Part shown: one piece after another, positions 29,412 to 60,931 of the stretch
How the letters are laid out: each line of letters opens with the position of its first letter
Numbering within the stretch: the first letter of the stretch is position 1
Assembly (NCBI GenBank): GCA_919902655.1
Contig: CAKKRL010000162.1
Location: 251 to 64,250 of the forward strand
Source of the DNA: Thermodesulfovibrionia bacterium
GTDB taxonomy: Bacteria > Nitrospirota > Thermodesulfovibrionia > JACRGW01
Direction: 5' to 3'
DNA: 64,000 nt
Program-made: the position numbers and the translations under genes
The notes under the pieces: model-generated
What the model saw: the letters and a program-made list of their open reading frames with translations, nothing else
What the model was told of the DNA's origin: nothing
Databases searched by the model: none

Positions 29412-31343
29412 TTACTGGAGGGTGAAAGTTACAACTATAGAATTCTTTGACCTCTTTGATTCGTATGTAACATTCTCTGGAAGGATTTCGAACATTATGC
29501 TGATGGTACTTCCTTCTTCTTCTATAATCACGTCACCTACAAATGATGATTTTAGCCTCTGGATCTTCTCCATCTTTCTCACAGCAGGTGTTACCTTGAG
29601 ATTGAGCCACTTTTTCCCTTCCTTTGTGACAAGGGAAGACTTATGGTCGACAGGGCCGTTAGAGGTGACCATGAGGATCGCCCTTTTCTTGCTCTCGATA
29701 ATCCCTATATCACTTACCTCGTAAGGCCCATGAACTGCCTCCTTCTTAGCTATCTCCTTCTTGGGTTCTGCCTTTTTAGCCTCTGCCGTCTCAATCTTTT
29801 TTGCTACTTTTGTTTCAGGCTTTTTTGATTCCTTGGGCTCAGGTTTTTTTTCAACATCCTTCTTGACCTCAGTTTTAGGTTTTACTTCAGGCTTTGGTTT
29901 TTTCTTTACCTCTGGCTGTGCTGGTTTTGGCTTCTCCTCTACCTTTTTGGCAGGTGCAGGTTCAACCTTTTTCTCTGCCGGTGGTTTGGCCGCTTCAACC
30001 TTTTTTTCTTTCTTAACTTCTTCCCTCGCCCCTTCTGTTTTTGGTCCCATCTTTGCATTTATGGAAAATGACTCTGCCTTGTCATATGTGGCATTTACGA
30101 CTGCTATCCCGTTTGCGAATTCAGATGGAGATACTGTTGACGGTGTAAAAGTCCCTGTACCGGTTATACTGATATAAACTTCTCCTCCAATTAGGTTGTA
30201 ATCACGGACAACGTTTTTAAATCTGTCATACGCCTCTATCCTCAGTTTGAAACCCTGGCCTGCTGAGGCTGTTTCAGGGGTAACGACGATAAAGTGGTCA
30301 GGGGTAGCTGGCCTGATCCTGACAGTTCCGCTTTTTCCGCTTTCCTTCTTATTGCTCTCTGTCGCAACTACCTCTATATTTTCAGCAACTTCGTAGGTGA
30401 CTTTTACTACAGCATTCCCCCCCTTGAATTCTGAAGGAGAGATACGGTCGGGGTAGACTTTTCCCTTCCCTGTGGATGTGAGTTGTACCCCATCACCAGT
30501 TGTATTGTAATTGGTAACAGGATTCCCTATTTTATCATGGGCCGTTATTATAATTTCAAAGGGGTTCCCTGCTATACCGTCCTTTGGGGCCTGTACATTT
30601 AACGCACTCATGGCTCCGGGCAAGATATTTATCGATGAACTCTTCCCCCTGATTCCTGAATATGGGTCATAAACATCTATAATTACCTCTCCTGCTTTCC
30701 CTGAAAGAAACCTTGCTGTTGCAACACCTGATTTGAAATTCAGGGCCCCGCTATCGAGGTATTTGAGTCCACCTGTTCCAGTCGTATTAATCCTGAAGTC
30801 CTTCCCTATCCCTGCATCATCCTTGATCATATTTTCGAAGGAGTCTCTTGCAACTATCCTCACATCAAATGTATCTCCTGCCTTTACCTGGTTAGGTGTC
30901 TGGAGCACAAAATTATCGAGCCTGTTAGGTTTTATTATTATTTCTTTTGAAAGTATCGGAACATTCCCGCCTGTCTCTAAAACAGAAAAGGTTATAGTCT
31001 CGGCCTTCTTATCTCTGATATTTATGGCGGCGCTTCCTCCAAGGAAATTTGACGGACTCAGGACCTTTGGTTCTGCCTTGGCACTGCCTGAAACCCTTAT
31101 CTCAAACTCCCTGCCTGTTTCGTTAAAATCGGTTATAAGGTTATTATACATATCATAGGACTGCAGTCTTACAACAATATTTTCCCCGGCAATCGGGGCA
31201 GGAGGAATTTGTACGGTAAAATGACTGAACTTTCCTGGTTTTACTGTTATGGTTGCAGCCTTAAGGTCATGGTAGCCTGATAAGAATAAGCAGAATAATG
31301 ACAAGATTAATAAAAAGAGAAACCTTTTATGGGTATTTACCAT
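29412..31343 (-). CDS. Secreted/surface protein with four tandem ~90-aa beta-sandwich (Ig-like) repeats, a Lys/Pro/Glu-rich linker and a C-terminal AMIN-like domain
   Basis: Signal peptide. Four internally similar repeats (…SPSNF.GG.A…, …AG..F.V.I.A.D.F.N…). About 100 aa of low-complexity KPEVKK linker. The C-terminal domain resembles the AMIN domain of the amidase at 47242. Confidence 0.5.
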   Translation of the reverse strand: MVNTHKRFLFLLILSLFCLFLSGYHDLKAATITVKPGKFSHFTVQIPPAPIAGENIVVRLQSYDMYNNLITDFNETGREFEIRVSGSAKAEPKVLSPSNFLGGSAAINIRDKKAETITFSVLETGGNVPILSKEIIIKPNRLDNFVLQTPNQVKAGDTFDVRIVARDSFENMIKDDAGIGKDFRINTTGTGGLKYLDSGALNFKSGVATARFLSGKAGEVIIDVYDPYSGIRGKSSSINILPGAMSALNVQAPKDGIAGNPFEIIITAHDKIGNPVTNYNTTGDGVQLTSTGKGKVYPDRISPSEFKGGNAVVKVTYEVAENIEVVATESNKKESGKSGTVRIRPATPDHFIVVTPETASAGQGFKLRIEAYDRFKNVVRDYNLIGGEVYISITGTGTFTPSTVSPSEFANGIAVVNATYDKAESFSINAKMGPKTEGAREEVKKEKKVEAAKPPAEKKVEPAPAKKVEEKPKPAQPEVKKKPKPEVKPKTEVKKDVEKKPEPKESKKPETKVAKKIETAEAKKAEPKKEIAKKEAVHGPYEVSDIGIIESKKRAILMVTSNGPVDHKSSLVTKEGKKWLNLKVTPAVRKMEKIQRLKSSFVGDVIIEEEGSTISIMFEILPENVTYESKRSKNSIVVTFTLQ

Positions 31344-31421
31344 ACACCCTCCTTTAAATAGTTTAACACGACAGCTTTTTCCCTGTTATTCCTACCACTT
31401 TTCTTTTAGAGTGTCAAGAAA

Positions 31422-31449
31422 AATCTCTTTATTGAAAACCCAATATAGC
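31422..31449 (+). promoter_or_regulatory. Candidate sigma70-type promoter (TTATTG-N16-TATAAT) for the ABC/PqqD/rSAM operon
   Basis: Read directly, 17 nt upstream of the ATG at 31466. Confidence 0.35.
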
Positions 31450-31465
31450 TTATAATCAATTATTA

Positions 31466-32197
31466 ATGAACACTAATAGTGCAATTAAGACCTTAAACCT
31501 CACTAAGTTTTTTACCTCTAAGGGTAACCCAATACTTGCCGTAGACGAAGTAACCATGGACATTTCTCAGGGAGAAATATTTGGTCTTATGGGGCCAAAC
31601 GGCGCAGGGAAGACAACCCTTTTAAAAATACTTACAACCCTTTTATTGCCGAGTTCAGGGGAGGCCTATGTTTCGGGTTACAGTATAAGGGAAGAGGATA
31701 AGGTCAAGGGTTCGATCGGTGTTATATCCTCAGAGGAAAGGAGCTTTTACTGGAGGCTTACAGGGAGAGAGAATCTCAGATTCTTTGCAACACTTCACAA
31801 CCTGAAGCCGTCAGAGATAAAAAGGAGAATCGAAAGCATAACCGGGACACTCGGATTGAAAGACTTTCTAGACAGAAGGTTTGATAGCTATTCCACAGGA
31901 ATGAAACAGAAACTCTTAATTGCAAGGAGTCTTATAGGTAACCCCATGGTTCTCTTTATTGACGAACTCACGAGGGGACTTGACCCTGTCGCAGCGTCAC
32001 AGATAAGAGAGAGCCTTAAAACCCTTTCTTCTAACGGCATAACGATCTTCCTTATTACCCATAGCATTGAAGAGGCGATAGAGGTCTGTGAAAGAGTTGC
32101 AATAATGTACCAGGGGAGTATAAAGGCCACTATAAGACCTGGGGAGGTAGAATTAAAAGATTTTATGATAGAGACTATTGGAGGCAGGATTGATTAA
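31466..32197 (+). CDS. ABC transporter ATP-binding protein (ABC-2 exporter type)
   Basis: Walker A GPNGAGKTT, the ABC signature and Walker B. Confidence 0.85.
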   Translation: MNTNSAIKTLNLTKFFTSKGNPILAVDEVTMDISQGEIFGLMGPNGAGKTTLLKILTTLLLPSSGEAYVSGYSIREEDKVKGSIGVISSEERSFYWRLTGRENLRFFATLHNLKPSEIKRRIESITGTLGLKDFLDRRFDSYSTGMKQKLLIARSLIGNPMVLFIDELTRGLDPVAASQIRESLKTLSSNGITIFLITHSIEEAIEVCERVAIMYQGSIKATIRPGEVELKDFMIETIGGRID

Positions 32198-33005
32198 TCA
32201 GATCTATAAAGTCATAGCCTTTCTCCGCAGGGATTTTAAGACAGAACTGAGTTACCGTTTTTCCTTCCTTTTAAACCTTGCAGGTATCTCCTTTTCTGTA
32301 ATAATGTTCTATTATATATCCAAACTATTCGGTAAGGCCGCATCCCCTTATCTGGAGGATTATGGAGGCGATTATTTCTCTTTTGTGATCATAGGTATAG
32401 CCTTTTCAGGCTATCTTTCTGTATCCCTCCACTCCTTCTCAGGGGCAATCAGGGAAGGGCAGATGCTCGGCACACTCGAGGCAATGATGGTAACACCAAC
32501 AGGGATACCTGCTATAATACTCTTTTCGGGCCTCTGGAGTTTTATATCAACAACTGTTGAGGTCATAATTTATTTATTGGCAGGTGTAATTATCTTTGGA
32601 CTTGACCTCGGAAAGGCAAATATCCTTTCTGCCATAACAGTAATGATCCTTACTATACTCTCCTTTTCTCCTCTCGGCGTTATATCTGCAAGCTTCATAA
32701 TGGCCTTCAAGAGGGGTGACCCGATAGCATTTTTATTCGGGTCAGCCTCTTCCCTTCTTGGAGGAGTCTATTATCCTATAACGATTCTTCCATCGTGGCT
32801 GCAGGACATCTCCCATCTTCTCCCCATCACATATTCACTAAGGGCAATGCGGTATTCCCTCATTAAAGGGTCTACACTATCAGAGATTTCATCTGACCTT
32901 TTTGCACTTGGTTTTTTTTCGGCATTTATGATACCTCTCAGCCTTATGGCATTTAGTTATGCTGTAAGGAAGGCAAAAGAAAAAGGTAGCCTGGGACAGT
33001 ATTAG
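32178..33005 (+). CDS. ABC-2 family transporter permease
   Basis: About six TM helices. Overlaps the ATPase gene by 20 nt. Confidence 0.75.
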   Translation: MEAGLINQIYKVIAFLRRDFKTELSYRFSFLLNLAGISFSVIMFYYISKLFGKAASPYLEDYGGDYFSFVIIGIAFSGYLSVSLHSFSGAIREGQMLGTLEAMMVTPTGIPAIILFSGLWSFISTTVEVIIYLLAGVIIFGLDLGKANILSAITVMILTILSFSPLGVISASFIMAFKRGDPIAFLFGSASSLLGGVYYPITILPSWLQDISHLLPITYSLRAMRYSLIKGSTLSEISSDLFALGFFSAFMIPLSLMAFSYAVRKAKEKGSLGQY

Positions 33006-33034
33006 AAAAATAATTTGTCTTGACACAACTTTTG

Positions 33035-33043
33035 TGGTATAAT
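33035..33043 (+). promoter_or_regulatory. Extended -10 promoter element (TGgTATAAT) immediately upstream of the PqqD gene
   Basis: tggtataat read directly. No properly spaced -35 (TTGACA is only 12 nt upstream). Confidence 0.35.
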
Positions 33044-33048
33044 TAATC

Positions 33049-33324
33049 ATGATTTACGAAAAAGACGAATCCATGGTCTTCAGGAAGATAGAGGATGAAA
33101 CAATCCTCGTCCCGATCAGAAACAAGGCAGGAGACCTCCAGAACATATTTGTCCTTAATGAGGTAGGGGCAAGGATCTGGGAGCTTATTGATGGTGAAAG
33201 TGATATAAATAAAATAAGCAGTACCATTTGTGCGGAATATGATATAACTTCTGAAGAAGCTGAAAGGGATTTAATGGATTTCATCGAAGACCTTAAGTCA
33301 ATAGAGGCATTGAAGGAAAAATAA
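33049..33324 (+). CDS. PqqD-family peptide-binding protein (stand-alone RiPP recognition element)
   Basis: About 85-90 aa: …VFRKIEDETILVPI…LNEVGARIWELIDG…S..I…E…DLMDFIEDL, the PqqD-like pattern. Start may be the ATG at 33073. Three nt upstream of the rSAM gene. Confidence 0.75.
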   Translation: MIYEKDESMVFRKIEDETILVPIRNKAGDLQNIFVLNEVGARIWELIDGESDINKISSTICAEYDITSEEAERDLMDFIEDLKSIEALKEK

Positions 33325-33326
33325 CT

Positions 33327-34412
33327 ATGGAATGTCAGAGAATCCATGAGATAAACTACAATGACTGGAGTAACGTCTTCCACAACAGGAATCTCGACAA
33401 AAGGGTGCCTATCTCAGGAAGCCTTGAACTCACCTTCAGATGCAACAATAACTGCATACACTGCTACTGTAACATACCTGCAAATGACAGAAATGAAATG
33501 TCTAAAGAGATGTCTACCTCTATGGCCACCAGAATCCTTAGTGAGATTGCAGATGAAGGGTGTCTCTGGCTCCTGCTTACAGGAGGCGAACCTCTTCTAA
33601 GGCCTGACTTTAAGGAGATATATCTCTATGCAAAGAAAAAAGGTATGCTCATAATATTATTTACAAACGGTACGCTTATTAATGAAGAAATAGCAGATCT
33701 CCTTTCAGAATGGATGCCCTACTCTGTAGAGATAACCCTTTATGGTGCCACAGAGAATACCTATGAGGATGTTACAAGGGTTCACGGCTCATACAGACAG
33801 TGTATGAAGGGTATTGAACTGCTTCTTGAGAGAAAAATCCCCCTCGAATTAAAGACGATGGCAATAAGGCAGAATGTCCATGAACTCCCTGTCATGAAGA
33901 AATATGCAGAAGACCTTGGCCTTAAATTCAGGTTCGACCCTATAATAAATGCCCGTTTAGATATGTGCAAGAACCCTCAATCAACAAGAATTGATATAGA
34001 GGATGTGATAAGGCTTGATCTCGAGGATGAAAAGAGATTAAAAGAATGGAAGGAATTCTGTGAAAAGTATATAGGTTCTCCTGATTCAGACAGGCTCTAT
34101 ACCTGCGGGGCTGGAATAAATACATTTCATATAGACCCATACGGTAACCTCAATATATGTATCATGGCAAGGAAGGATAGATATGATCTTAAGACAGGAA
34201 ACTTCAGAGATGGTTGGAATGATTTTTTAATTAAGCTAAGGGAAATGTCTATGAGCCCTTATAATAGATGTATGGGATGCGATCTCATGTCTCTCTGCGG
34301 TCAGTGCCCTGGATGGGCGCAAATGGAGCACGGGGATGATGAGACCCCTGTTGACTATTTATGTGATATTGCACACAAGAGGGCAGAGGCATTCGGGGTG
34401 AAAGGGCATTAG
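33327..34412 (+). CDS. Radical SAM/SPASM-domain peptide-modifying enzyme
   Basis: CNNNCIHC (CxxxCxxC). C-terminal SPASM cysteines (CGAGINTFHIDPYGNLNIC…CMGCDLMSLCGQCPG). Confidence 0.85.
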   Translation: MECQRIHEINYNDWSNVFHNRNLDKRVPISGSLELTFRCNNNCIHCYCNIPANDRNEMSKEMSTSMATRILSEIADEGCLWLLLTGGEPLLRPDFKEIYLYAKKKGMLIILFTNGTLINEEIADLLSEWMPYSVEITLYGATENTYEDVTRVHGSYRQCMKGIELLLERKIPLELKTMAIRQNVHELPVMKKYAEDLGLKFRFDPIINARLDMCKNPQSTRIDIEDVIRLDLEDEKRLKEWKEFCEKYIGSPDSDRLYTCGAGINTFHIDPYGNLNICIMARKDRYDLKTGNFRDGWNDFLIKLREMSMSPYNRCMGCDLMSLCGQCPGWAQMEHGDDETPVDYLCDIAHKRAEAFGVKGH

Positions 34413-34493
34413 GGGGATAAAAGCGATTGAGAATATAAAGGGGAAAGGGAGAAAGAGCAACTATAGACTACGGACTTAAAAACAGGAGGACAA

Positions 34494-34748
34494 ATGGATA
34501 AACTTTTAAAGTTAGATAAAACAGGCGATTCAATACTTCTTAAAGAGATAAAAAAATCATTAGGCTTGAAACTTGATGATGAACTTTTCTTGTTCAGCGG
34601 AAAGGATTATCTGGTAATTAAAAAGGTTCAGAGACCTTCCCTTTCTGAGCGTTTTAAGAGCCTTTCTGAGAAGACAGAGAAACGATTTAAAAAAGAGGGG
34701 TTAAAAGAGGATGTGGTAGTTGAGGCTATTAAATGGGCACGAAGATAG
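34494..34748 (+). CDS. AbrB/MazE/SpoVT-type swapped-hairpin antitoxin-like protein
   Basis: LKLDKTGDSILLKEIKKSLGLKLDDELFLF…YLVIKK resembles an AbrB-type DNA-binding fold. Overlaps the truncated PIN ORF by 16 nt. Confidence 0.5.
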   Translation: MDKLLKLDKTGDSILLKEIKKSLGLKLDDELFLFSGKDYLVIKKVQRPSLSERFKSLSEKTEKRFKKEGLKEDVVVEAIKWARR

Positions 34749-34807
34749 TGCTCGATACCAATGTATTTGTTTCAGCAATCGGTTTGAGGCAAGGCCTCAA
34801 AGAGTAG
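34733..34807 (+). pseudogene. Truncated PIN-domain (VapC) toxin remnant, 24 codons then a stop
   Basis: MGTKIVLDTNVFVSAIGLRQGLKE* is a typical VapC N-terminus (…VLDTNV…) ended prematurely by TAG. Confidence 0.55.
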
Positions 34808-34810
34808 CGA

Positions 34811-34845
34811 GCCTGTTTCCAGAAGCTGTTCGGGAAACAGCCTTA
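34811..34845 (+). terminator. Stem-loop (cctgtttcc…ggaaacagc) just upstream of the peptide promoter; possible terminator or insulator
   Basis: 8-9 bp stem with a 12-nt loop, read directly. No U-tract. Confidence 0.3.
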
Positions 34846-34851
34846 CGATTC

Positions 34852-34880
34852 TTGACAGGAATGAAGATGGATAGTAAAAT
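34852..34880 (+). promoter_or_regulatory. Near-consensus sigma70 promoter TTGACA-N17-TAAAAT dedicated to the small peptide gene
   Basis: TTGACA at 34852-34857, a 17-nt spacer, TAAAAT at 34875-34880, then AAGGAGG and an ATG 9 nt later. Confidence 0.6.
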
Positions 34881-34903
34881 CAAAACAAAGGAGGATTAGC
34901 ACT

Positions 34904-35071
34904 ATGACAAAAAAGGCATATGAAAAACCCAAGGTAAGTAAGGTACCTTTAAAGACATCAGAGGCAGTTCTGACTGCATGTAAAGGTCCAGGTTCAAGGG
35001 GCCCCGGTTCTCTCGTAGGAAATTGTAGAGGCACCGCAGGCCGTGACTGTTCCTCTTGGAGTAGGACATAA
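34904..35071 (+). CDS. 55-aa Cys/Gly/Ser-rich small peptide, a candidate RiPP precursor; not in the ORF track
   Basis: MTKKAYEKPKVSKVPLKTSEAVLTACKGPGSRGPGSLVGNCRGTAGRDCSSWSRT. SD AGGAGG 9 nt upstream and its own promoter. The listed antisense ORF 34843..35034 is probably spurious. Confidence 0.6.
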   Translation: MTKKAYEKPKVSKVPLKTSEAVLTACKGPGSRGPGSLVGNCRGTAGRDCSSWSRT

Positions 35072-35089
35072 ACCTATATCACCGTATCC

Positions 35090-36166
35090 TTGTTACTACT
35101 CAGAATCGCAGATATAAACCTTCTCTTTAAGTCTGATCTCAAAGGGCTAAAGATCGGCTATCCTCAAAAGAATTTTATTCATTCCACATTCCCTCAATCC
35201 TCTCCCCAAAAGGGAGTGGAGGCAAAAAAGAAAGTCCCCTCTCCCCAACGGGGAGAGGGTCAGGGTGAGGGGGAAATTATTGACTGCACCATATCTATAG
35301 AACACCACCCTCTACCCTTTAATATTAAAGATAAAGAGATCTTCAGCCATGCAGGACCCTGGAAACTTTTCAGGAACAGAAAAGGTTATAAGATTGCCTT
35401 CTTTTTCCCCGCTTTAAAGCCTGATTATTACATGCTTGCAGAATTTAAAAGGGATTTCTCAAGGGTAAGACTATATATAAAAGACGCGGATCTTCGCTAC
35501 GCTCAGAATGACAAGCGAAGGGCTCAGAATGACAACAAGAAGACCTTTATTATTTCCCATCCCCTTGACCAGCTTTTAGTCATCAACCTCCTCTCCCGTG
35601 GCAGAGGAGTAATGATACACTCCTGTTGTGTCAATGATAACGGAAGGGGTTTCCTTTATGCCGGGACATCTCGCTCTGGCAAGAGTACGACTGCGAAACT
35701 CTGGTTAAAGCAGACAAAACCCTCCGAATCCCCCCACACCCCACTTTGGAAAAGGGATAATCCCCCTTCCTCCCCCTTTATTAAAGGGGGAATAGAGGGG
35801 GATTTTAAAGATATGACAGGAGTGAAGGTTTTAAGCGATGACAGGATTATAATCAGAGAGTTTGATGATAAGATCTATGCCTATGGCACACCCTGGCATG
35901 GGGAGGTAAATGTCTGTGATCCTGGAAGGGTGGAGATAGAAAGGATATTCTTCCTTCAACACTCGACGAAAAACTATGTGAAGTCACTTCCTCCTGTGGA
36001 TGCAGCAACGAGGATGTTTGTCAGATGCTTCCCCACCTTCTGGGATAAGGAAGGTATGGCATTTACACTGAAATTCATAGATGAGGTGGTCAGGAAAGTC
36101 CCCTGCTATGAATTCGGATTCGTGCCGGATAAAAGTGCGGTCAATTTCGTTAGAGGGCTTCGCTGA
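35090..36166 (+). CDS. HPr kinase/phosphorylase-like P-loop kinase (HprK-related). Its N-terminal region carries three in-frame repeat-element insertions. The start is uncertain: the track lists TTG at 35090, and the first ATG is at about 35432.
   Basis: P-loop LYAGTSRSGKST (HprK Walker A pattern G-x-S-G-x-GKS) plus downstream DDRII…GTPWHGE. Repeat families A, C and B lie in frame. Confidence 0.5.
   Translation: MLLLRIADINLLFKSDLKGLKIGYPQKNFIHSTFPQSSPQKGVEAKKKVPSPQRGEGQGEGEIIDCTISIEHHPLPFNIKDKEIFSHAGPWKLFRNRKGYKIAFFFPALKPDYYMLAEFKRDFSRVRLYIKDADLRYAQNDKRRAQNDNKKTFIISHPLDQLLVINLLSRGRGVMIHSCCVNDNGRGFLYAGTSRSGKSTTAKLWLKQTKPSESPHTPLWKRDNPPSSPFIKGGIEGDFKDMTGVKVLSDDRIIIREFDDKIYAYGTPWHGEVNVCDPGRVEIERIFFLQHSTKNYVKSLPPVDAATRMFVRCFPTFWDKEGMAFTLKFIDEVVRKVPCYEFGFVPDKSAVNFVRGLR
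35190..35281. repeat. Palindromic repeat family A, copy 1 (tccctcaatcctctcccc … cccctctcccc aac ggggagaggg … gggtgaggggg), in frame in the HprK-like ORF
   Basis: Shares the core CCTCAATCCTCTCCCC…GGGGAGAGG with copies at 36449-36500 and 50519-50562. Confidence 0.6.
35501..35540. repeat. Repeat family C, copy 1: tandem gctcagaatgacaa(gcgaag)ggctcagaatgacaa, in frame in the HprK-like ORF (encoding AQNDKRRAQNDNK)
   Basis: A near-identical arrangement at 52165-52205 (ggactcggaatgacaagcaaaggactcagaatgacaa) is intergenic. Confidence 0.55.
35726..35808. repeat. Repeat family B, copy 2, in frame in the HprK-like ORF (encoding …SPHTPLWKRDNPPSSPFIKGGIEGDFK)
   Basis: aatccccccacacccc…atcccccttcctccccctttattaaagggggaatagagggggatttt aligns with the reverse complement of 7861-7935. 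Confidence 0.55.
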
Positions 36167-36188
36167 ATAAGTGAGGACAGGCGAGACG

Positions 36189-36261
36189 CCTGTCCTACCA
36201 ATACGGATGACGAAACAAGGAAAAAGTAGGTCAGGCGTCTCGCCTGACAAAGTGGAATCGC
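36189..36261 (+). terminator. Pair of near-identical inverted hairpins (ggacaggcgagacgcctgtcc … gtcaggcgtctcgcctgac); terminator/attenuator-like
   Basis: Stems of 9 bp and 8 bp with 3-nt loops, about 40 nt apart. They are reverse complements of one another. Confidence 0.4.
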
Positions 36262-38790: not shown

Positions 38791-40091
38791 TTCCCCCTCC
38801 CTACCCCTGTATATCTTATACCCATCTCCTTCATTTTCTTTGGGTCGTAAATATTCTTGAGATCTATTACCACAGGCTTCTTCAGGAGACTCTTTATCTT
38901 ATTTATTTCAAGATTTCTGAACTGATTCCACTCAGTAATGATTACGAGTGCATCAGACCCATCTGCCACCCCGTAAGGGTCATTACAGTACTCTATATCA
39001 TCGAGGAACTTCTTTGCCTCCTCCATTGCTGCGGGGTCGTATGCCCTGATCTTTGCCCCCTCCTTCTGAAGACCCTTTATTATGGAGACCGATGGTGCGT
39101 CCCTCATATCATCCGTATTCGGTTTAAATGAGAGGCCCAGGATACCTATCCTTTTATCCTTCAATTCTCCGGTTTCCTTCTTTATCTTCTCTACCATAAG
39201 TGCCCTCTGTCTCTTATTCACCTTTATAACGGCCTTTACTATCTCAAAGTCATAACCATGTTCCTTGGCTATATTCACTATGGCAGATGTGTCCTTCGGG
39301 AAGCAGGAACCTCCGAATCCAGGGCCCGGATGAAGGAATTTTGTCCCGATCCTGTTATCATGGCCCATCCCCTTCGCTACCATATGGACATCTGCCCCGA
39401 CCCTCTCGCAGATATTTGCAATCTCGTTAATAAATGACACCTTTGTTGCCAGGAAGGCATTTGATGCATACTTTATCATCTCGGCCGTCTTGATGTCTGT
39501 AACTATAAAGGGGGTCTCTATAAGGTAAAGGGGAGCGTAGAGGTCTCTCATTATAGCAATCGCATGGTCGCTCTCGGCGCCGATTACTACCCTGTTCGGC
39601 CTCATGAAATCCTCTATGGCAGATCCTTCCCTCAGGAACTCGGGGTTGGATACTATATCAAAGTCTACCTTCTCCTTCTGTTTCTCCCCTATGATCTTTC
39701 TTATCTTCTCACCTGTTCCAACAGGCACTGTACTCTTTGTGACTATCACCTTATATCCATTCATGTTCTCTGCAATACTGTGTGCAACCGCCTCCACATA
39801 GGAAAGATCAGCAGAGCCATCCTCCATTGAAGGCGTACCTACAGCTATAAAAATACCGAGCGATCTTTTTACAGAACCGGCAAGGTCTGTGGTAAAGGAA
39901 AGTCTCCCGTCTTTAATGTTCCTCTTTACAAGTTCCTCAAGGCCCGGTTCGAATATAGGTATAATCCCATTAGAAAGGTCTTTTATCTTCTTTTCATCTT
40001 TATCAACACCGACGACCTTCAGTCCGAATTCTGCAAAGCAGGCCCCTGTTACCAGACCTACATAACCCGTTCCAACAACACAGATGTTCAT
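38787..40091 (-). CDS. ugd: UDP-glucose 6-dehydrogenase
   Basis: [24 protein letters not shown]-terminus and the catalytic GGSCFPKD. The track ORF extends 14 codons upstream to 40133; the true start is probably 40091. Confidence 0.85.
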
Positions 40092-40948
40092 AGTGAAACC
40101 CTTTCTCCATAATCCCTCAGCGTCTCTTCCCATTTCCTCATCCTGTATCCAGTCAGCTTAAAATATCTGTCATTGCTCAATACAGAATATGAAGGCCTCT
40201 TCGCAGGTCTTTTCAGCTCACCGGATTTTATCGGTATAACATTCACGCCCTTTATCCCCTTTATTCTTATTATCTCTTTCGCAAAATCATACCAGGAACA
40301 TTCCCCTGAATTACTGCAATGGACAATACCCGCTGCATCTGAATCAATCAACCTCTCTATTGATTCTGAGAGGTCTACAGTATAAGTGGGTGAGCCTGTC
40401 TGGTCATCCACAACCCTTATTTCATCTTTTTCATTCGATAACCTCAGGATCGTATCAACAAAATTCCTTCCGTTTTTACCGAAGAGCCATGAGGTCCGTA
40501 TAATAAGAGTCTGGAGTCTGGAGTCTGGAGTCTGAAGTCTGGAGATTTCCTGCTCTCCTTCAAGTTTGGACTGTCCGTATATATTTATTGGCCTTGGCTC
40601 ATCATCCTCTTTATATGGTTCCTTCTTCTCTCCGTTAAAGACATAATCTGTACTGATGTGTATGAACCTTGCATTCACTTCATAACATCCTGTTGCCACA
40701 TTTCTCGCCCCACCCCTGTTCACTTTAAATGCCACTTCCCTCTCTGTCTCGCAGGCATCAACATCTGTGAATGCAGCAGTATTTATAACAAGTTCGGGAA
40801 TTATTTTTTTTATTCCCCTTATAGTCTCTGCCTCGTCCGTAATATCGAAATCTTCAACATCAACACCTTTTACATCATTCTTTATAGAAAGCCTTTTTAC
40901 AAGATCAGTTCCAAGCATCCCCTTTGCACCTGTCACAAGAATCCTCAT
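40088..40948 (-). CDS. rfbD: dTDP-4-dehydrorhamnose reductase
   Basis: MRILVTGAKGMLG…, …RTSWLFG…, and a C-terminal pattern typical of RfbD. Contains an in-frame heptamer-repeat insertion (EISRLQTPDSRLQT). Confidence 0.8.
   Translation of the reverse strand: MRILVTGAKGMLGTDLVKRLSIKNDVKGVDVEDFDITDEAETIRGIKKIIPELVINTAAFTDVDACETEREVAFKVNRGGARNVATGCYEVNARFIHISTDYVFNGEKKEPYKEDDEPRPINIYGQSKLEGEQEISRLQTPDSRLQTLIIRTSWLFGKNGRNFVDTILRLSNEKDEIRVVDDQTGSPTYTVDLSESIERLIDSDAAGIVHCSNSGECSWYDFAKEIIRIKGIKGVNVIPIKSGELKRPAKRPSYSVLSNDRYFKLTGYRMRKWEETLRDYGERVSL
40508..40550. repeat. Tandem heptamer (GAGTCTG)x5 within rfbD, in frame
   Basis: gagtctggagtctggagtctggagtctgaagtctggag read directly. Translates on the minus strand to EISRLQTPDSRLQT. 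Confidence 0.7.
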
Positions 40949-40950
40949 AA

Positions 40951-41035
40951 TTTAGTCTATCAGTCAACAGTCTATAGTCGACCAGTAGATTGAAAGACTG
41001 CTGACTGCCGACTCAAGACTGATTTGCACCAGTCC
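40951..41035. repeat. Long hairpin built from tandem heptamers (cagtcta/cagtcaa …) and their complements (agactgc/tgactgc…) at the rfbD/rfbB junction
   Basis: tagtctatcagtcaacagtctatagtcgaccagtagattgaaagactgctgactgccgactcaagactgat. Overlaps the 3' end of rfbB. Confidence 0.6.
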
Positions 41036-41970: not shown

Positions 41971-42000
41971 TTTAATTATCGAAGACCCGACCTATAGGGC

Positions 42001-42065
42001 GGATTTTGGATTTTGGATTTTGGATTTTAAATCTCCAATCCGCAATCTGAAATCCAAAATTGATA
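42001..42065. repeat. (GGATTTT)x4 tandem heptamers followed by their complementary arm (aaatctc caatccg caatctg aaatcca aaat), at the rfbB/rfbC junction
   Basis: Read directly. Confidence 0.65.
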
Positions 42066-42525: not shown

Positions 42526-42562
42526 GTTCACTGTTCACTGTGAACGGTTCACAGTGAATTAT
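42526..42562. repeat. Perfect 12-bp palindrome (ttcactgtgaac g gttcacagtgaa) preceded by an extra tcactgt heptamer, at the rfbC/rfbA junction
   Basis: Read directly. Confidence 0.6.
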
Positions 42563-45777: not shown

Positions 45778-47148
45778 TCACACCCTCAGCCTCTCCACAT
45801 CCATACCGAATCCTTTAACCTCTCCCACAGTATATAGGGAGCCTGTAATACATATAAGATCCCGACTGCCTGCTTTACCCATTGCATACTCAATGGCCTC
45901 GTTTACTCCCTTTATAGCCATTACATTCGGATTAAACGCCTCTGCCTCAACCGCAAGAGATTCAGGTGAAGCAGCCCTCTCATAGTCCACTGTTGTCACT
46001 ATCACCTCAGATGCAATGGGTGCAAGGACCCTGAGGAATCCCCTTACATCCTTATCCTTCATCATACCTACTATCAAAAATAACCTACCGTGCCCGGGGA
46101 GAAATATCTCTTCAAGTGATTTCTTAAGAGAACGTGCGGCTCCTTCATTATGTGCACCATCGAGGATAACTGTTGGGTTTCTGGATATTATTTCGAGCCT
46201 CCCGTCCCACCTGGCCTCTTTAAGTCCCTTCCTTACCATCTTCTCTTCTATTTTAATTTCATTACCGATTACCTCTGTAGTAGCAACTGCCAGTGAGGCA
46301 TTCGTTATCTGATGTGCACCTAACAGAGGAATTTCAAGACCTTGGTATATCTTTTTTATTCCATAATAATCAAAGACTTGAGTCTGGAGTCTGGAGTCTG
46401 GCCCGCCTTGCTTCTCCGTAGGATCCTGTGGAGCGGAGCGAGGCCGGGGAGCCTGGAGTCTTGAACCCTCTGTCCTAAAATCCCTTCCTGATATATATAG
46501 TTTAGACCCCATATCTTTACATTTATCTTCTATCAACTGCCTGACCTCAGGCAGATTATCTGCCATAACAACAGGGATTCCCTCCTTTATGGTTCCTGCT
46601 TTCTCTATCGCTATCTCGGGAAGGGTTACACCGAGGAATTCCTGATGGTCATAACCGATATTTGTTATAACAGAAACCAAAGGGGTTATCACATTCGTAG
46701 CATCGAGCCTTCCACCCATACCTACCTCTATTACTGCTATGTCAACATCTTCTTCTGCAAAGTATTTAAAGGCAATTGCTGTGGTAAATTCGAAAAAAGT
46801 GGGTGTAATACATTTGATATTTGAGATTTGAGATTCGAGATTCAAAGTCATCTCTGACACCCTTTCTTCCTCAATCGGCATACCGTTTACCCTTATCCTT
46901 TCTGTAAAGCTTACAAGGTGTGGTGAGGTATAAAGGCCAACCTTCATTCCTGAACCCTTAAGTATAGATGCAATCATTACTGCGGTTGATCCTTTACCAT
47001 TTGTCCCGGCAATATGGATTGATTTAAATCGCCTATGGGGATTCCAGAGGATACCCATCAAAGAGAGTGTATTATCCAGTCCTAACTTTATCCCGTATTT
47101 CTGCAGACTGTAAAGGTAATCAACCGCCTCTTTATAACCCATACACAC
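45778..47148 (-). CDS. folC: Bifunctional folylpolyglutamate synthase / dihydrofolate synthase
   Basis: HIAGTNGKGSTAVMIASILKGSG P-loop and Mur-ligase-like layout. Carries two in-frame tandem-repeat insertions. Confidence 0.8.
   Translation of the reverse strand: MCMGYKEAVDYLYSLQKYGIKLGLDNTLSLMGILWNPHRRFKSIHIAGTNGKGSTAVMIASILKGSGMKVGLYTSPHLVSFTERIRVNGMPIEEERVSEMTLNLESQISNIKCITPTFFEFTTAIAFKYFAEEDVDIAVIEVGMGGRLDATNVITPLVSVITNIGYDHQEFLGVTLPEIAIEKAGTIKEGIPVVMADNLPEVRQLIEDKCKDMGSKLYISGRDFRTEGSRLQAPRPRSAPQDPTEKQGGPDSRLQTQVFDYYGIKKIYQGLEIPLLGAHQITNASLAVATTEVIGNEIKIEEKMVRKGLKEARWDGRLEIISRNPTVILDGAHNEGAARSLKKSLEEIFLPGHGRLFLIVGMMKDKDVRGFLRVLAPIASEVIVTTVDYERAASPESLAVEAEAFNPNVMAIKGVNEAIEYAMGKAGSRDLICITGSLYTVGEVKGFGMDVERLRV
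46374..46475. repeat. Composite element in folC: (GAGTCTG)x3, then a GC-rich palindromic core, then ctggagtct; in frame (encodes SRLQAPRPRSAPQDPTEKQGGPDSRLQT)
   Basis: Read directly. Same heptamer and the same reading frame as the rfbD copy. Confidence 0.6.
46806..46850. repeat. Tandem heptamers (atttgag/attcgag) in frame in folC (encodes LNLESQISNIK)
   Basis: tttgatatttgagatttgagattcgagattcaaagtc read directly. Confidence 0.5.
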
Positions 47149-50604: not shown

Positions 50605-51045
50605 CTATTTCTTACAGGCTCCAAGTCTGCGGCCGGTAAGTTTCGATGTTGAGTCTGTGGTCTGTCCTGTGCTGTCTGTGGTCTTGGTCTTCATAATTCC
50701 ATTGTAACTGATTCCGCCATAGGTGATTTCACCTTCTCCTATAGTTGTGACACCCTCTGTTACACATTTTACCTTCCAAACCACCTTGTTTCCAGTAATC
50801 TTCTGATCTAACACCTTACAATTTTTATCCTTTTTTGCAGTCTTCGGAACAAAATCTTCTTTTGTAAGGCACTGTTTGTCTTTAAAAGTCATCGGCGGCA
50901 TCTGGAATGGAGATTCAGGCATCTCCACCTTTATCTCCATAGTGGTCTCCCACTCCCCTTCCTGCATATTCACAGCAGCGTATACGAATGTCAATGAAGC
51001 AAAGGCCAGAAATAAACCTAAAAACAATTTACCTGCTCTCTTCAT
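50605..51045 (-). CDS. Secreted small protein of unknown function (possibly DUF3617-like)
   Basis: Signal peptide MKRAGKLFLGLFLAFASLTFVYA. Thr/Gly-rich. No catalytic motifs. Confidence 0.35.
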   Translation of the reverse strand: MKRAGKLFLGLFLAFASLTFVYAAVNMQEGEWETTMEIKVEMPESPFQMPPMTFKDKQCLTKEDFVPKTAKKDKNCKVLDQKITGNKVVWKVKCVTEGVTTIGEGEITYGGISYNGIMKTKTTDSTGQTTDSTSKLTGRRLGACKK

Positions 51046-51072: not shown

Positions 51073-52179
51073 TTACACCTTCTTTCCGACAATAACAGCC
51101 TCGTTTCCATTTGCAAAAAGATAAACCTCTGTCTTCATCCCTACACGATGAAACTCGGCCTCTATCTCTTCAGGCATGAGGAAATGATTTCCCTGAATAT
51201 GTTCTGCAAGGTTCTGGAATACCATCCCTTTCTTCATCGGGTCACGCAGTTCAGAACGGTCCTTTGGCCAGTTAGGTTCCCATATTACTGCTGAACCGCC
51301 AGCCTTGAGGTGTTCCTTTAAAATACGAAACACATCCTCTTTCTTATCCCATACATGGTGCAAGGCACGGTTCATAGCGATTAAATTAGCAGGTTCGCTA
51401 GCAGAAAAATGGTAGATATCACCATTCATAAATTTCAATCTATCACTCAGGCCATTGTCCTGTGCAATCTTTGTGGCCTGATTAATATTCTCTTCAAAAC
51501 CATCAAGCCCTATCCCCCTGAGATGAGGAAATCGTGTTACAATCCTTCTCAGATACCACCCGTTTCCACAACCAAGATCGATAATTAGACCTCCTTTCTC
51601 ATCTGTCTCTCTGTACACCGGCACATTCGGAAGTATCTGTTGTTCAAATACTCCACTGAACATGGCTTCAAGCATCGGTCCGAACAGGGGCAGGATACTC
51701 GTTCTCTCTGCCAGTACCATTTCACCCGGACGTTCACCGCTTCTCATTAAAGATGCCGCCCTTTCACACATATGTGCAGAAAGCACAGACTGAACTGAAA
51801 AAGGCATCGCAGTTCCGGGTGTCTCAGCAATGAAGGAACTTCCAATATCTGTAAGACTGAATTTCCCATCACTCTCGTCCAGAAGACCGAACGCATAAGC
51901 AGCATCACACCAGCGATTCAGATAATCTCTATCCAGTCCTGTTTTCCCTGCCAGTTCGTCAGGTGTAGCCTTTCTATCCCTATTTAATACAGAAAAAAGA
52001 TTATTCGATATTCCGATAAATGCTATATTAAGCATCATCGCCCCCTGCATTTGTGAAATTATCTGTTTACGCAATTCCTCTGAAACACTCATAGATTTTT
52101 CCTCCTGTTGAGATTTTTCATGCCGAGCAAAAAAAATGAGATTCCTCCTCCCCATTCCTATCTGGACTCGGAATGACAA
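51073..52179 (-). CDS. Class I SAM-dependent methyltransferase with an N-terminal winged-helix/dimerisation domain (O-methyltransferase-like). The likely true start is MSVSEEL at about 52092.
   Basis: LIIDLGCGNGWYL motif I. The N-terminal ~90 aa look like the dimerisation domain of plant/bacterial O-MTases. Confidence 0.65.
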   Translation of the reverse strand: MSFRVQIGMGRRNLIFFARHEKSQQEEKSMSVSEELRKQIISQMQGAMMLNIAFIGISNNLFSVLNRDRKATPDELAGKTGLDRDYLNRWCDAAYAFGLLDESDGKFSLTDIGSSFIAETPGTAMPFSVQSVLSAHMCERAASLMRSGERPGEMVLAERTSILPLFGPMLEAMFSGVFEQQILPNVPVYRETDEKGGLIIDLGCGNGWYLRRIVTRFPHLRGIGLDGFEENINQATKIAQDNGLSDRLKFMNGDIYHFSASEPANLIAMNRALHHVWDKKEDVFRILKEHLKAGGSAVIWEPNWPKDRSELRDPMKKGMVFQNLAEHIQGNHFLMPEEIEAEFHRVGMKTEVYLFANGNEAVIVGKKV

Positions 52180-52205
52180 GCAAAGGACTCAGAATGACAA
52201 TCAAG
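52165..52205. repeat. Repeat family C, copy 2 (intergenic)
   Basis: ggactcggaatgacaagcaaaggactcagaatgacaatcaagg. Confidence 0.5.
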
Positions 52206-52206
52206 G

Positions 52207-52650
52207 CTATTGTTCCAGTTTCTGTGCCTTGACAGAAAGATAGTATGATACCATCAGGATTATAATTAAAATACCCATCAATCCTAATTCATATAGTCTT
52301 TCAACAGACATATGCTCCATTTGAAATGTTTGCGCCTCTATTATCAGTATCTTCCTTACAGCAACTATTATGCCAATGGCAAGAAAGGGGGCAAGCAAGA
52401 ATTTCTGTTTCTTTAAAAACCTGATAACAGTCCAGAGAAGCTCAAGGATAATCAGTGCAAGGAGTACATCATTCACGAGATGTATCATCGAGTCACGGGA
52501 CGGATGCAGGATATTAAGAAGCGCATAATAGAGGACAACGCTACACGCAAAGAGCAATAGCAAGGCAGCTACGACATGGAAAATTAAATCAATCTTTATG
52601 AGACCTTTCCTGAATATCTCTATAAAATCTTCCTTTTTCTCTTCTTCCAT
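52207..52650 (-). CDS. Small four-TM membrane protein (PsiE-like?)
   Basis: 147 aa with four hydrophobic helices. Family assignment is weak. Confidence 0.35.
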   Translation of the reverse strand: MEEEKKEDFIEIFRKGLIKIDLIFHVVAALLLLFACSVVLYYALLNILHPSRDSMIHLVNDVLLALIILELLWTVIRFLKKQKFLLAPFLAIGIIVAVRKILIIEAQTFQMEHMSVERLYELGLMGILIIILMVSYYLSVKAQKLEQ

Positions 52651-56909: not shown

Positions 56910-56960
56910 TCTTTAGTCAGCAGTCGGCAGTCAGTAGCAAAGAAAAATAAAAAATAAAAA
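56909..56960. repeat. Tandem heptamers (agtcttt agtcagc agtcggc agtcagt), then (aaaaat/aaaaaat)x3 between the ACAD and etfB genes
   Basis: Read directly. Confidence 0.45.
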
Positions 56961-60590: not shown

Positions 60591-60665
60591 TATAAGTTTA
60601 AGGTTTAGAGTTTAGAGTTAGTAGTTTGATTTTTTAACTTTCGACTTTGAACTTTTAACTTTTAC
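60590..60665. repeat. Two blocks of tandem heptamers (gtttaga gtttaga gttagta gtttgat / aactttc gactttg aactttt aactttt) in the fabG-acpP intergenic region
   Basis: Read directly. Confidence 0.5.
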
Positions 60666-60685
60666 CATGGGAGGTGATTGAAGAT

Positions 60686-60931
60686 ATGGCAGCAGAAGAA
60701 AAATCGATTGAGGAAAAGGTAAGGAAGATAATTTCAGATCAGTTAGGAGTTGACGCTGAAGAGGTCACTCCGGATGCCTCATTTGTAGATGATTTGGGGG
60801 CTGACTCTCTGGACACGGTTGAACTCGTCATGGCCTTCGAGGAAGAGTTTCATATCGAGATCCCTGACGAAGATGCAGAGAAGATAGCTAAGGTTCAGGA
60901 CGCTATCAATTATATTAAGGATAAAATGTGA
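60686..60931 (+). CDS. acpP: Acyl carrier protein
   Basis: [20 protein letters not shown] (phosphopantetheine Ser). SD gggaggtg upstream. The track ORF starts 12 nt earlier, at 60674. Confidence 0.9.

Follow-up and report, generated by a model that had tools for sequence, protein, structure and literature searches.

Tandem arrays of 7-nt units recur throughout this DNA and are probably heptanucleotide simple-sequence repeats of the STRR kind, a trait that runs through the genome of one uncultured Nitrospirota lineage and is kept by slippage or conversion in place together with selection. STRR is the name given to the tandem heptanucleotide repeats of cyanobacteria. The window (the whole stretch analyzed, 64,000 nt) comes from a Nitrospirota MAG from Hainich groundwater. 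TRF found 18 period-7 arrays in it versus a mean of 1.5 expected from 20 dinucleotide shuffles; for arrays of at least 2.8 copies, the count was 16 versus 0.25 expected from such shuffles. As in other simple-sequence repeats of this class, the 7-nt units stand head to tail at about three or more copies (TRF), and the arrays are many and dispersed, well above chance. They also prefer intergenic DNA: non-coding sequence, 7.5% of the window, holds 8 of 17 arrays (p = 1.3e-5). Per 10 kb, loci of the clade carry 1.9–6.4 arrays, whereas rfbD loci of unrelated genomes, 1.23 Mb in all, carry 0.37. Heptamer arrays are also dense on contig BBPD01000027.1 and on the Berkelbacteria locus L068. A search of genome contigs with RfbD returned no clade member (best match, 51% identity), and these contigs served as control and outgroup.

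The initial annotation had described in-frame arrays in three genes, rfbD, folC and Fd-etfA. TRF and translation bear this out, with coordinates right to a few bases, and Pfam confirmed the identities of the host genes. All three arrays are in frame and are read as an S-R-L-Q-T-P-D-like peptide. These three are not the only ones, though: the window also holds a second folC array, one in a DUF3617 protein gene and about eight intergenic arrays (Table 1). Nor are the arrays whole multiples of 21 nt, as had been proposed, since they measure 38 nt (rfbD), 22 nt (folC) and 29 nt (Fd-etfA).

Table 1. Heptanucleotide arrays in the 64-kb window, with their host genes and the folC insert
Feature	Positions	Strand	Unit, copies and product	Basis
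rfbD/rmlD (dTDP-4-dehydrorhamnose reductase), host gene	40088-40948	minus		Pfam RmlD_sub_bind, E=9e-94
rfbD array	40507-40544	minus	(GAGTCTG) x5.4, 93% matches	TRF
rfbB-rfbD spacer array	40953-40979		TAGTCTA-like x3.7	TRF
rfbC-rfbB spacer arrays	42001-42060		sense (AAAATCC)x4, with inverted degenerate (GGATTNN)x4 before it	TRF
rfbA-rfbC spacer array, intergenic	42526-42552		GTTCACT x3.9	TRF
folC (folylpolyglutamate/dihydrofolate synthase), host gene	45778-47148	minus		Pfam Mur_ligase_M, Mur_ligase_C; homologues named FolC
folC site-2 array, downstream part	46380-46401	minus	(GAGTCTG) x3.1, 100% matches; sense CCAGACTCCAGACTCCAGACTC, PDSRLQT	TRF, codon alignment
Insert splitting folC site-2 array	46401-46452	minus	52 nt, 71% GC, imperfect palindrome; encodes APRPRSAPQDPTEKQGG	
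Dispersed-repeat core within folC insert	46412-46432	minus	21 nt	
folC site-2 array, upstream part	46453-46464	minus	12 nt; sense TCAAGACTCCAG, SRLQ	sequence, codon alignment
folC site-1 array	46812-46842	minus	sense AATCTCA x4.4 (LNLESQISNIK)	TRF
Array in DUF3617 protein gene, near C-terminus	50653-50690	minus	sense CACAGAC-like x5.6; TKTTDSTGQTTDST	TRF, Pfam
Two intergenic arrays 5' of etfB	56915-56962		AGTCAGC x2.9 and AAAAATA x2.9	TRF
Fd-EtfA gene	57743-58930	plus		Pfam; 100% identical to NCBI 'MAG: FAD-binding protein [Nitrospirota bacterium]'
Fd-etfA array	57914-57942	plus	(TCCCGAC) x4.1, 72% matches; SRLPTTDSRL	TRF
Two intergenic arrays	60595-60664		AGTTTAG x3.6 and TTTTAAC x4.7	TRF
Array forming final codons and stop codon of RNase III gene	62979-63003	plus	AAATTCT x3.6	TRF, Pfam

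Arrays occupy matching codon positions in 7–11 related species, at 62–91% protein identity. The array near FolC residue 105 is present at all seven clade loci and that near residue 231 at six of seven; the array at RfbD residues ~141–149 is likewise found at six of seven, the remaining locus having two units. Orthologues at ≤56% identity have a short non-repetitive segment instead, and neither distant orthologues nor PDB homologues carry the repeat peptide. The arrays are thus lineage-specific rather than native sequence, as the initial annotation had supposed. Although positions are shared, units are not. In rfbD, the in-register unit is CAGACTC in the window, CAGACTT in L090, GAAACTC in L084 (4.9 perfect copies) and ACGACTC in L087. 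At the etfA site, TCCCGAC in the window corresponds to TCAGAGT, TCCGAGT and TCCCACN in orthologues, while at folC site 2 some species have CAGACTC-type units and L088 has CACAGGT x4.7. Each array is internally uniform, in a unit particular to its species: lag-7 self-identity is 0.78–0.91, compared with an in-register identity of 0.59–0.69 between more distant species. Because the codon positions are the same in all clade members sampled and the units differ, the arrays predate these species and evolve in place. As judged from these alignments, the pattern is one of concerted evolution in place, not of recent spread of one element.

In most orthologues, array length is exactly kept though all units differ, and out-of-frame alleles number zero among 11 RfbD, 13 FolC and 15 EtfA clade sequences. 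Length differences of 21 nt, which the initial annotation had anticipated among strains or reads, do occur between orthologues: rfbD has two units in L089 and L216 versus five in L215, a difference of exactly 21 nt. None was seen among the assemblies of this population: the ENA assembly, two Logan assemblies and the NCBI MAG do not differ in copy number, assemblies being prone to collapse minority variants. L081 was considered as a copy-number variant and rejected, its arrays being identical to those of the window; its divergent 5' end comes from another strain or from a chimeric join and does not reflect variation of the arrays.

In rfbD, the sense unit CAGACTC x5.4 codes for S136–T147 (SRLQTPDSRLQT), and translation across the array gives EISRLQTPDSRLQTLIIRTSW. 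Alignment to PDB 1vl0 and 3sc6 indicates a net gain of 5 residues, so the term insertion, used in the initial annotation, is only partly right here. In the AF2 model of RfbD (mean pLDDT 96.3), the array forms the end of helix 123–137 and loop 138–146, ahead of strand 147–152. Its two blocks have pLDDT values of 92 and 86, and all other blocks, the C-terminal tail excepted, are at 94 or above. Three independent assemblies and the NCBI MAG yield an identical protein. A truncated orthologue, P0013, was examined as a possible frameshift ('phase-off') allele and rejected, as the truncation is N-terminal and the array is in frame. The gene sits in a large polysaccharide cluster.

The two folC arrays differ in structural setting. 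Site 2, over which the peptide reads GSRLQAPRPRSAPQDPTEKQGGPDSRLQTQ, lies at a low-confidence hairpin tip of the AF2 model (pLDDT 56–61, and <50 at residues 247–252; mean for FolC, 91.3). Here P0133 is shorter than P0132 by 7 residues. Site 1 lies inside helix 94–111 (AF2 secondary structure) and shows no net length change versus the outgroup. The insert that splits site 2 is absent from the L084 orthologue (88% identical), which is 48 nt (16 residues) shorter there. Repetition is limited to the 21-nt core of this insert and does not extend over all 52 nt; the core has three exact copies in the window, with unrelated flanks, and none in the other 2.15 Mb searched. As sense RNA, the insert region folds no more stably than shuffled sequence does (z = +1.2), and we therefore claim no mRNA structure there.

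For Fd-etfA, translation across the array gives ESRLPTTDSRLM, in the linker joining the ferredoxin and ETF domains. In this case there is no insertion in the sense first proposed, as net length is unchanged (homologues, 395–403 aa). The window's unit has an in-register identity of only 0.20–0.37 with the units of relatives. To go by these sequences, it is not a simple point-mutated form of theirs, and a register shift or replacement must be assumed.

Positional conservation extends to intergenic arrays. Arrays are found in the rfbC-rfbB spacer of L087, L089 and L091, and in the rfbA-rfbC spacer of L084, L087, L089 and L091. The arrays at 60595-60664 separate ORF 59850-60590 from a small ORF, 60674-60931. 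Locus L092 is syntenic; there, the counterparts of these ORFs encode a FabG-like short-chain dehydrogenase and an acyl carrier protein, and the matching spacer contains an array. L092 also has an array at the matching end of its RNase III gene. The rfbB-rfbD spacer array is mostly intergenic but overlaps the final 8 nt of the rfbB ORF, stop codon included. In the rfbC-rfbB spacer, the inverted arrays are predicted by RNA folding to form a hairpin of -24.4 kcal/mol, with a modest z-score (-2.2). One contig, L082, terminates exactly at 42028, within these arrays.

That all three coding arrays use the frame giving S-R-L had been taken as a sign of frame selection. It is uninformative, because 7 and 3 share no factor and every frame of (CAGACTC)n yields one cyclic peptide, QTPDSRL, a peptide of which our literature search found no mention. 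Strand is the only choice open to a coding heptamer array. The CAGACTC, TCCCGAC and CACAGAC units are stop-free on both strands, so stops do not force their strand choice; for the folC site-1 unit, the antisense strand contains a stop. At least 120 metagenome stretches contain an exact (CAGACTC)x4. There, and for the most part at linkers, (CAGACTC)n is read in frame in chorismate synthase, RpoC, UppS, OadA-like, RluB-like, exosortase and histidine-kinase proteins. The sense reading QTPDSRL outnumbers the antisense reading ESGVWSL by 32 to 8 in a count that includes arrays just 5' of start codons; many metagenomic arrays lie directly 5' of a start codon, in sense orientation.

We infer a mechanism of slippage or conversion, coupled with selection on the encoded peptide. 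Strand misalignment during replication or repair, as slippage or as templated conversion, would form the arrays and keep them uniform in situ. Within genes, selection would spare those arrays that are stop-free on the sense strand, keep the frame and lie in structurally tolerant segments, namely helix ends, hairpin tips and interdomain linkers. A coding array is read in all three phases, giving a 7-residue peptide repeat, and the viable length steps in genes would be gains or losses of three units only (21 nt, 7 residues). The arrays are old yet would be continually turning over, and each species would thereby come to have its own uniform unit. The common S-R-L peptide would stem from related units (GACTCCA, GACTCCC) on the sense strand, coding there for a hydrophilic, loop-friendly peptide, and not from a common insertion event. 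Against slippage, neither a slippage event nor within-population length polymorphism was seen in three independent assemblies. Moreover, constant length with changed units is not obviously predicted by simple slippage; it would call for cycling between two and five units or for length-neutral conversion.

Conserved positions in intergenic spacers, which are kept across species despite unit change, could instead signal that the arrays function. They might act at the DNA or RNA level, as sites for a protein that reads 7 nt or as regulatory or terminator hairpins, with the coding arrays sharing this role. The rfbC-rfbB hairpin would fit, and the placement of (CAGACTC)n directly 5' of start codons resembles that of the TAACTGA repeats of Beggiatoaceae, for which translation regulation has been proposed (PMC4679880). 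The same paper also points to the cold-shock protein CspB, one molecule of which binds each unit of heptamer direct repeats (PMC4679880). We nevertheless regard such a function as rather unlikely. Units differ between orthologous arrays, which speaks against sequence-specific recognition; the z-score of the hairpin is modest; structural tolerance alone explains where the coding arrays are placed; and we identified no candidate binding protein.

It is somewhat less probable still that the arrays, rather than arising passively by slippage, are actively written or homogenized by a mechanism common across phyla, acting in genes as frame-restoring buffers. If true, active writing would explain both the identical in-frame (CAGACTC)n of unrelated organisms and the swapping of units without length change. 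A 7-nt unit shifts the frame by one base, and gain or loss of units would then rescue any frameshifting insertion nearby. With such buffering, essential genes could take in small mobile elements like the 52-nt insert of folC.

We see only a slight chance that the arrays are contingency loci, in which unit gain or loss switches or modulates genes by phase variation, notably rfbD in O-antigen/rhamnose synthesis. A simple-sequence repeat in a surface-polysaccharide gene of a large polysaccharide cluster is what such a locus would look like, rfbD exists in 2-unit and 5-unit states between species, and a one-unit change would break the frame. Yet all alleles seen are in frame, with none of the out-of-frame, on/off kind; copy number is the same in three independent assemblies and the MAG; and the arrays are short, at 3–5 units. 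The hosts also fit poorly. While rfbD is a surface gene, folC, etfA, the DUF3617 gene and, elsewhere, rpoC, aroC and uppS are not surface, antigenic or restriction-modification genes, and switching off folC, etfA, rpoC or aroC would be harmful. The frame-neutral expansion or contraction that the initial annotation offered as an alternative does agree with the 21-nt, 7-residue steps between orthologues (rfbD, FolC P0133), but the alleles, all in frame, lend no support to a classical on/off contingency locus.

The reading first favored, in which a mobile short-repeat element (GAGTCTG)n newly inserted in frame into three unrelated genes under frame selection, now appears very improbable. The same or a near-identical unit does occur in three genes of one genome, the 28-mer (CAGACTC)x4 is widespread in unrelated metagenomic contigs, and the 52-nt folC insert with its dispersed 21-nt core does look mobile. 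But clade orthologues at 62–91% identity share the sites, at the same codons, and differ in units, which contradicts recent spread of one repeat element. In addition, etfA has no net insertion, the arrays lack terminal structure and target-site duplications, and the coincidence of frame is a mathematical necessity. The heptamer arrays themselves lack the marks of mobile miniature elements of the MITE, REP or SDR-like kind. Finally, an artefact of assembly or sequencing can be dismissed with near certainty, as can the idea that the peptide is native conserved sequence: contigs do break at arrays (as L082 does), but independent assemblies concur, with an identical RfbD in three of them and the NCBI MAG, no ORF is broken, arrays stand at the same positions in relatives sampled at other sites and in other studies, and the peptide is missing from distant orthologues and PDB homologues.

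As in-place simple-sequence repeats, the arrays have close counterparts. Heptanucleotide long simple-sequence repeats of prokaryotes (Mrazek et al. 2007, as related in PMC4679880) and the tandem heptanucleotide repeats of Calothrix PCC 7601 (as cited in PMC4692102) likewise have 3–6 tandem 7-nt copies, diverse units dispersed in each genome, intergenic enrichment, a sporadic phylogenetic distribution and polymerase slippage as their proposed origin; intergenic bias is reported in other heptamer-rich bacteria as well (PMC4692102, PMC4679880). The present arrays differ in their uncultured Nitrospirota host, a phylum for which our literature search found no report of heptanucleotide repeats, in that about half lie in frame within conserved enzyme genes, and in that orthologous arrays have species-specific units. 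Geobacter metallireducens has 49 copies of elements of four tandem heptanucleotide repeats (GGACCGG), a single GC-rich consensus unit read as a regulatory RNA element (PMC2700814); the units here are many and different, AT-rich or mixed, and turn over between species, and the arrays share no flanks. TAACTGA direct repeats, found in marine Beggiatoaceae, some Cyanobacteria and Bacteroidetes, are also heptamer arrays of 2–6 copies gathered just upstream of start codons, and consequences of their translation have been considered (LSVISYQ in one orientation; PMC4679880). However, they have one favored unit, contain stops in the forward orientation and are nearly all intergenic, whereas the units here are diverse and the coding arrays stop-free. 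The G-quadruplex-forming GGGNATC repeats of Xanthomonas and Nostoc (PMC4692102) share genome-wide heptamer arrays, a preferred copy number of about 4 and proximity to ORF ends, but our arrays are not G-rich and several are coding.

The contingency loci of host-adapted pathogens resemble the present arrays in being simple-sequence repeats in ORFs with a unit length that is not a multiple of three; unlike those, the arrays here sit in housekeeping genes, differ only by frame-preserving 21-nt steps and give no evidence of on/off switching or of polymorphism within the population. Small dispersed repeats of Nostoc (SDR, 21–27 nt), described by Elhai and colleagues in 2008, are said to enter heptamer repeats and conserved genes. 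The folC insert alone is comparable: it has a 21-nt exact core with three copies in 64 kb and unrelated flanks, one copy lying in a GC-rich insert that itself sits within a heptamer array of a conserved gene, with the frame kept. It differs from SDR in phylum, in sequence and in having three copies only, and is a putative mobile element.

Knowledge of bacterial heptanucleotide repeats goes back to the 1990s, and their origin and function are still unsettled. The arrays of this lineage join that known class, with a coding-region twist. In practical terms, they fragment metagenome contigs, raise apparent divergence in marker-gene alignments (RpoC in other lineages included) and could be mistaken for biologically meaningful insertions. 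The clade also supplies something rare, orthologous arrays that hold fixed codon positions in conserved enzymes across a series of species at 62–91% protein identity. This series makes concerted evolution directly visible, with the unit swapped and the position and mostly the length retained; it reveals protein segments tolerant of arbitrary 7-residue repeats, and shows 21 nt to be the working step in coding DNA.

The tandem heptamer arrays that the initial annotation placed in rfbD, folC and etfA are real, as confirmed by direct reading and Tandem Repeats Finder (TRF). Pfam identified the host ORFs as RmlD/RfbD, Mur-ligase-type FolC and ferredoxin-fused EtfA, and translation gave the array peptides EISRLQTPDSRLQT, GSRLQ...PDSRLQT and ESRLPTTDSRL, respectively. 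An assembly artefact was ruled out: the RfbD protein is identical across three independent Hainich groundwater assemblies, two of which match the window over 4.6–5.6 kb with at most one mismatch, and EtfA is 100% identical to an NCBI protein, 'MAG: ... [Nitrospirota bacterium]'. Arrays missing from that annotation lie at a second folC site (site 1), in a DUF3617 gene, in the RNase III gene and between genes. The window holds 18 period-7 arrays versus 1.5 in dinucleotide-preserving shuffles, and 16 with at least 2.8 copies versus 0.25 expected; no other repeat period gave a comparable excess in the window. The non-coding 7.5% of the window contains 8/17 arrays (p = 1.3e-5). Density was 1.9–6.4 arrays per 10 kb in the window and six syntenic loci of relatives; the corresponding value for 1.23 Mb of sequence around rfbD in 80 unrelated genomes was 0.37. 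The arrays of rfbD, folC and etfA belong to a genome-wide feature.

Repeat features of the window (forward-strand coordinates)
Feature	Position	Unit or composition	Remarks
rfbD array	40507-40544	(GAGTCTG) x5.4	
Inverted heptamer arrays, rfbC-rfbB spacer	41999-42060	(GGATTNN)x4 then (AAAATCC)x4	on sense strand
folC array, site 2	46380-46401	(GAGTCTG) x3.1	12 further array bases at 46453-46464
Insert within folC site 2 array	46401-46452	52 nt, 71% GC	imperfect palindrome
folC array, site 1	46812-46842		peptide LNLESQISNIK
DUF3617-gene array	50653-50690		
etfA array	57914-57942	(TCCCGAC) x4.1	
RNase III array	62979-63003		supplies the gene's last codons
Intergenic arrays			~8 in window
21-nt repeat	1229-1249 (+), 21841-21861 (-), 46412-46432 (-)	TCCACAGGATCCTTCGGAGAA	two exact copies, one with a single mismatch
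G/C hairpin	291-330	GGAG-G15-AA-C15-TCC	perfect homopolymer; between convergent ORFs 48-281 (+) and 348-1196 (-, M48 peptidase)
21-nt unit, twice	52164-52204	GGACTCAGAATGACAAGCAAA	90% matches; at boundary of ORFs 51073-52179 and 52207-52650

Protein searches returned a clade of related metagenomic species (identities of 60–91% for RfbD, 62–88% for FolC and 76–86% for EtfA); hits beyond it, at ~50–64% identity, were named Nitrospirota or Thermodesulfovibrionales. We compared the syntenic folC-lptD-rfbA-rfbC-rfbB-rfbD loci L084 and L087-L091, and additionally etfA loci L092-L094 and rfbD loci L215 and L216. Clade members carry heptamer arrays at shared codon positions, with a unit specific to each species. 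In codon register, the rfbD unit is CAGACTC in the window, CAGACTT in all copies of L090, CAAACTC/CAGACTC in L088, GAAACTC in L084 (4.9 perfect copies), ACGACTC in L087 and GCATCNN in L091; that of the etfA linker is TCCCGAC in the window, TCAGAGT in L093, TCCGAGT in L092 and TCCCACN in L094. At folC site 2 the unit is CAGACTC-type in the window, L084, L089 and L091, and CACAGGT (x4.7) in L088. TRF found arrays at FolC residue ~105 in 7/7 loci, at FolC residue ~231 and RfbD residues ~141-149 in six of the seven, and recurrently in the rfbA-rfbC and rfbC-rfbB spacers. Lag-7 self-identity inside arrays is 0.78–0.91, and in-register identity between more distant species 0.59–0.69. In more distant orthologues, as in the PDB homologues 1vl0 and 3sc6, a short non-repetitive segment takes the place of the array, in keeping with the earlier view that the peptide is not native. 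Shared codon positions, species-specific units and absence from distant orthologues together indicate, on this comparison of sequences, that the arrays are older than the clade species and that their uniformity within each lineage reflects concerted evolution. At RfbD residue ~24 (HGSRFTV), L087 (10054-10087), L090 (10054-10080) and L091 (6660-6693) have an (ACGGTTC) x4-5 array, unlike the window.

The arrays are not neat 21-nt insertions. The rfbD site is five residues longer than in the outgroup and PDB homologues, folC site 1 shows zero net length change, and at folC site 2 clade members are 2–5 residues longer. EtfA homologues are all 395–403 aa, so the array there occupies a native linker, and the proposed insertion into etfA falls away. 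Among clade members, length differences come in steps of seven residues. RfbD carries two units (G/S-NFKF) in L089 and L216 and five of the same AAATTCA type in L215, a difference of exactly 21 nt; at FolC site 2, one relative (P0133) falls seven residues short of another (P0132). The frame-preserving 21-nt steps anticipated earlier are thus seen between species, but not as within-population variation.

In the AlphaFold model of RfbD (mean pLDDT 96.3), array residues S136-T147 form the end of helix 123-137, which follows the catalytic YxxxK motif, and loop 138-146, ahead of strand 147-152; block pLDDT is 92 and 86 versus at least 94 elsewhere, C-terminal tail excepted. In that of FolC (mean 91.3), site 1 lies inside helix 94-111, nearer its C-terminal end, and site 2 with its extra insert forms the tip between strands 224-231 and 257-262, with block pLDDT of 61 and 56 (<50 at residues 247-252). 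The etfA array is the linker joining the ferredoxin and ETF domains. Judging from these contexts, sequence constraint at all of these sites would be expected to be weak.

The S-R-L frame common to the three genes had been taken as a sign of frame-selected spread. Yet all three phases are read per 21 nt of array, so every frame of (CAGACTC)n yields the cyclic peptide QTPDSRL and the start residue alone varies. The real choice is of strand only, and this is not forced by stop codons, since the opposite strand, (GAGTCTG)n, encodes ESGVWSL and is stop-free as well. Exact (CAGACTC)x4 occurs in at least 120 metagenomic stretches, on contigs of 38–69% GC. Among the 80 loci listed, arrays for which just one strand is stop-free over 200 codons or more comprised 32 sense (QTPDSRL) versus 8 antisense (p = 2e-4), several 'sense' arrays lying just upstream of a likely start codon, outside the gene. 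This bias suggests selection on the encoded peptide; QTPDSRL-type peptide is hydrophilic, with a high content of Ser, Thr, Pro, Asp, Gln and Arg. Pfam confirmed in-frame arrays, mostly at domain boundaries, in chorismate synthase, RNA polymerase beta', UppS, an OadA/pyruvate-carboxylase-type protein, an RluB-like pseudouridine synthase, an exosortase, a histidine kinase and a DUF1376 protein; in-frame CAGACTC-unit arrays are therefore widespread.

An RNA polymerase beta' gene of L108 (8742-12758, -) and of L121 (contig BBPD01000027.1) has several in-frame heptamer-encoded segments (e.g. ESRVESRESRV, ELQTPDSRLQTP), and these contigs carry 18–25 arrays per 11–15 kb, far above the window. Chorismate synthase of L149 (52-1332, +; 40% GC contig) has two adjacent, different in-frame arrays (VELRVKSSELK followed by DSRLQTPDSRL) and, some way downstream, a third (QTTDSRPQT); its Pfam match covers 390 residues against a profile of 327 positions. 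A control locus, L068 (Candidatus Berkelbacteria contig PEZW01000025.1), has nine arrays in 13 kb, a density equal to that of the Nitrospirota clade; richness in heptamers is thus found in a candidate-phyla-radiation bacterium too.

We consider it probable that arrays originate and homogenise in place through strand misalignment, and that purifying selection confines arrays within genes to those that lack stops, preserve the frame and occupy tolerant segments. Unit change at mostly constant length could reflect cycling between the observed two-unit and five-unit states, or length-neutral templated conversion. That the arrays instead serve a function as DNA or RNA, to which the conserved spacer positions and the inverted-array hairpin of the rfbC-rfbB spacer (-24.4 kcal/mol, z = -2.2) point, seems unlikely; the non-conserved unit speaks against recognition of a specific sequence. 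There is little support for classical phase variation or recent transposition. Orthologues have other units at the same codon positions, which contradicts the initially proposed spread of a single short-repeat element as a recent event. An independent contig, L082, ends exactly at an array edge in the rfbC-rfbB spacer (42028).

At folC site 2 the window is 48 nt (16 residues) longer than L084, whose FolC is 88% identical, and has 4 nt less array sequence. The 52-nt insert there contains a 21-nt core, TCCACAGGATCCTWCGGAGAA, copies of which have unrelated flanks: one lies ahead of the M48 peptidase gene, one where a methyltransferase ORF begins and one within the folC insert; the core was not found in the other 2.15 Mb of loci compared, clade relatives included. 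The insert has the appearance of a small dispersed repeat, possibly a mobile one, lodged within the array, similar to the 'small dispersed repeats' reported from cyanobacteria. Since an insert of 52 nt shifts the frame, a change in the array must have brought it back, which prompts the speculative idea of the array as a 'frame buffer'. Another FolC relative, P0123 (468 aa), has a 25-residue insert, SKTFIPLTHTSPPWGEEKGEGRFTA, at alignment columns 316-340, absent from all other FolC sequences; this suggests that clade genes receive in-frame insertions of further small elements as well.

Elsewhere in the window, the G/C hairpin may act as a terminator in both directions, or may be an oddity of the sequencing. 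A same-sample contig, L081, is 99.9% identical to the window over ~11.5 kb, the match breaking down in the 5' part of rfbB; its positions 1-330 (window beyond ~41742) have GC-rich sequence, CCCTCTCCCCCTGCGGGAGAGGGTAAGGGTGAGGGG, upstream in place of heptamer arrays, and this end stems from a second strain or from a chimeric join. The region ~30000-36200 (L081 annotation), with a radical SAM enzyme, a PqqD-like protein, a weak ScmC-family match, an ABC transporter pair and small ORFs of 55 and 84 aa, looks like a cluster for a ribosomally made, post-translationally modified peptide.

Heptanucleotide repeats are described as the most abundant long simple-sequence repeat class in many prokaryotes, with polymerase slippage as their proposed origin (Mrazek 2007, as cited in PMC4679880). 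Known hosts include cyanobacteria, Xanthomonas (PMC4692102) and Beggiatoaceae (PMC4679880), and Geobacter metallireducens has 49 four-heptamer elements 'within genes ... as well as between genes' (PMC2700814). The literature searched gave no report of heptamer repeats in Nitrospirota or of the QTPDSRL peptide, and we file these arrays among the known heptanucleotide repeats. What they add is a series of orthologous arrays in housekeeping enzymes, in which concerted evolution can be followed at fixed codon positions.
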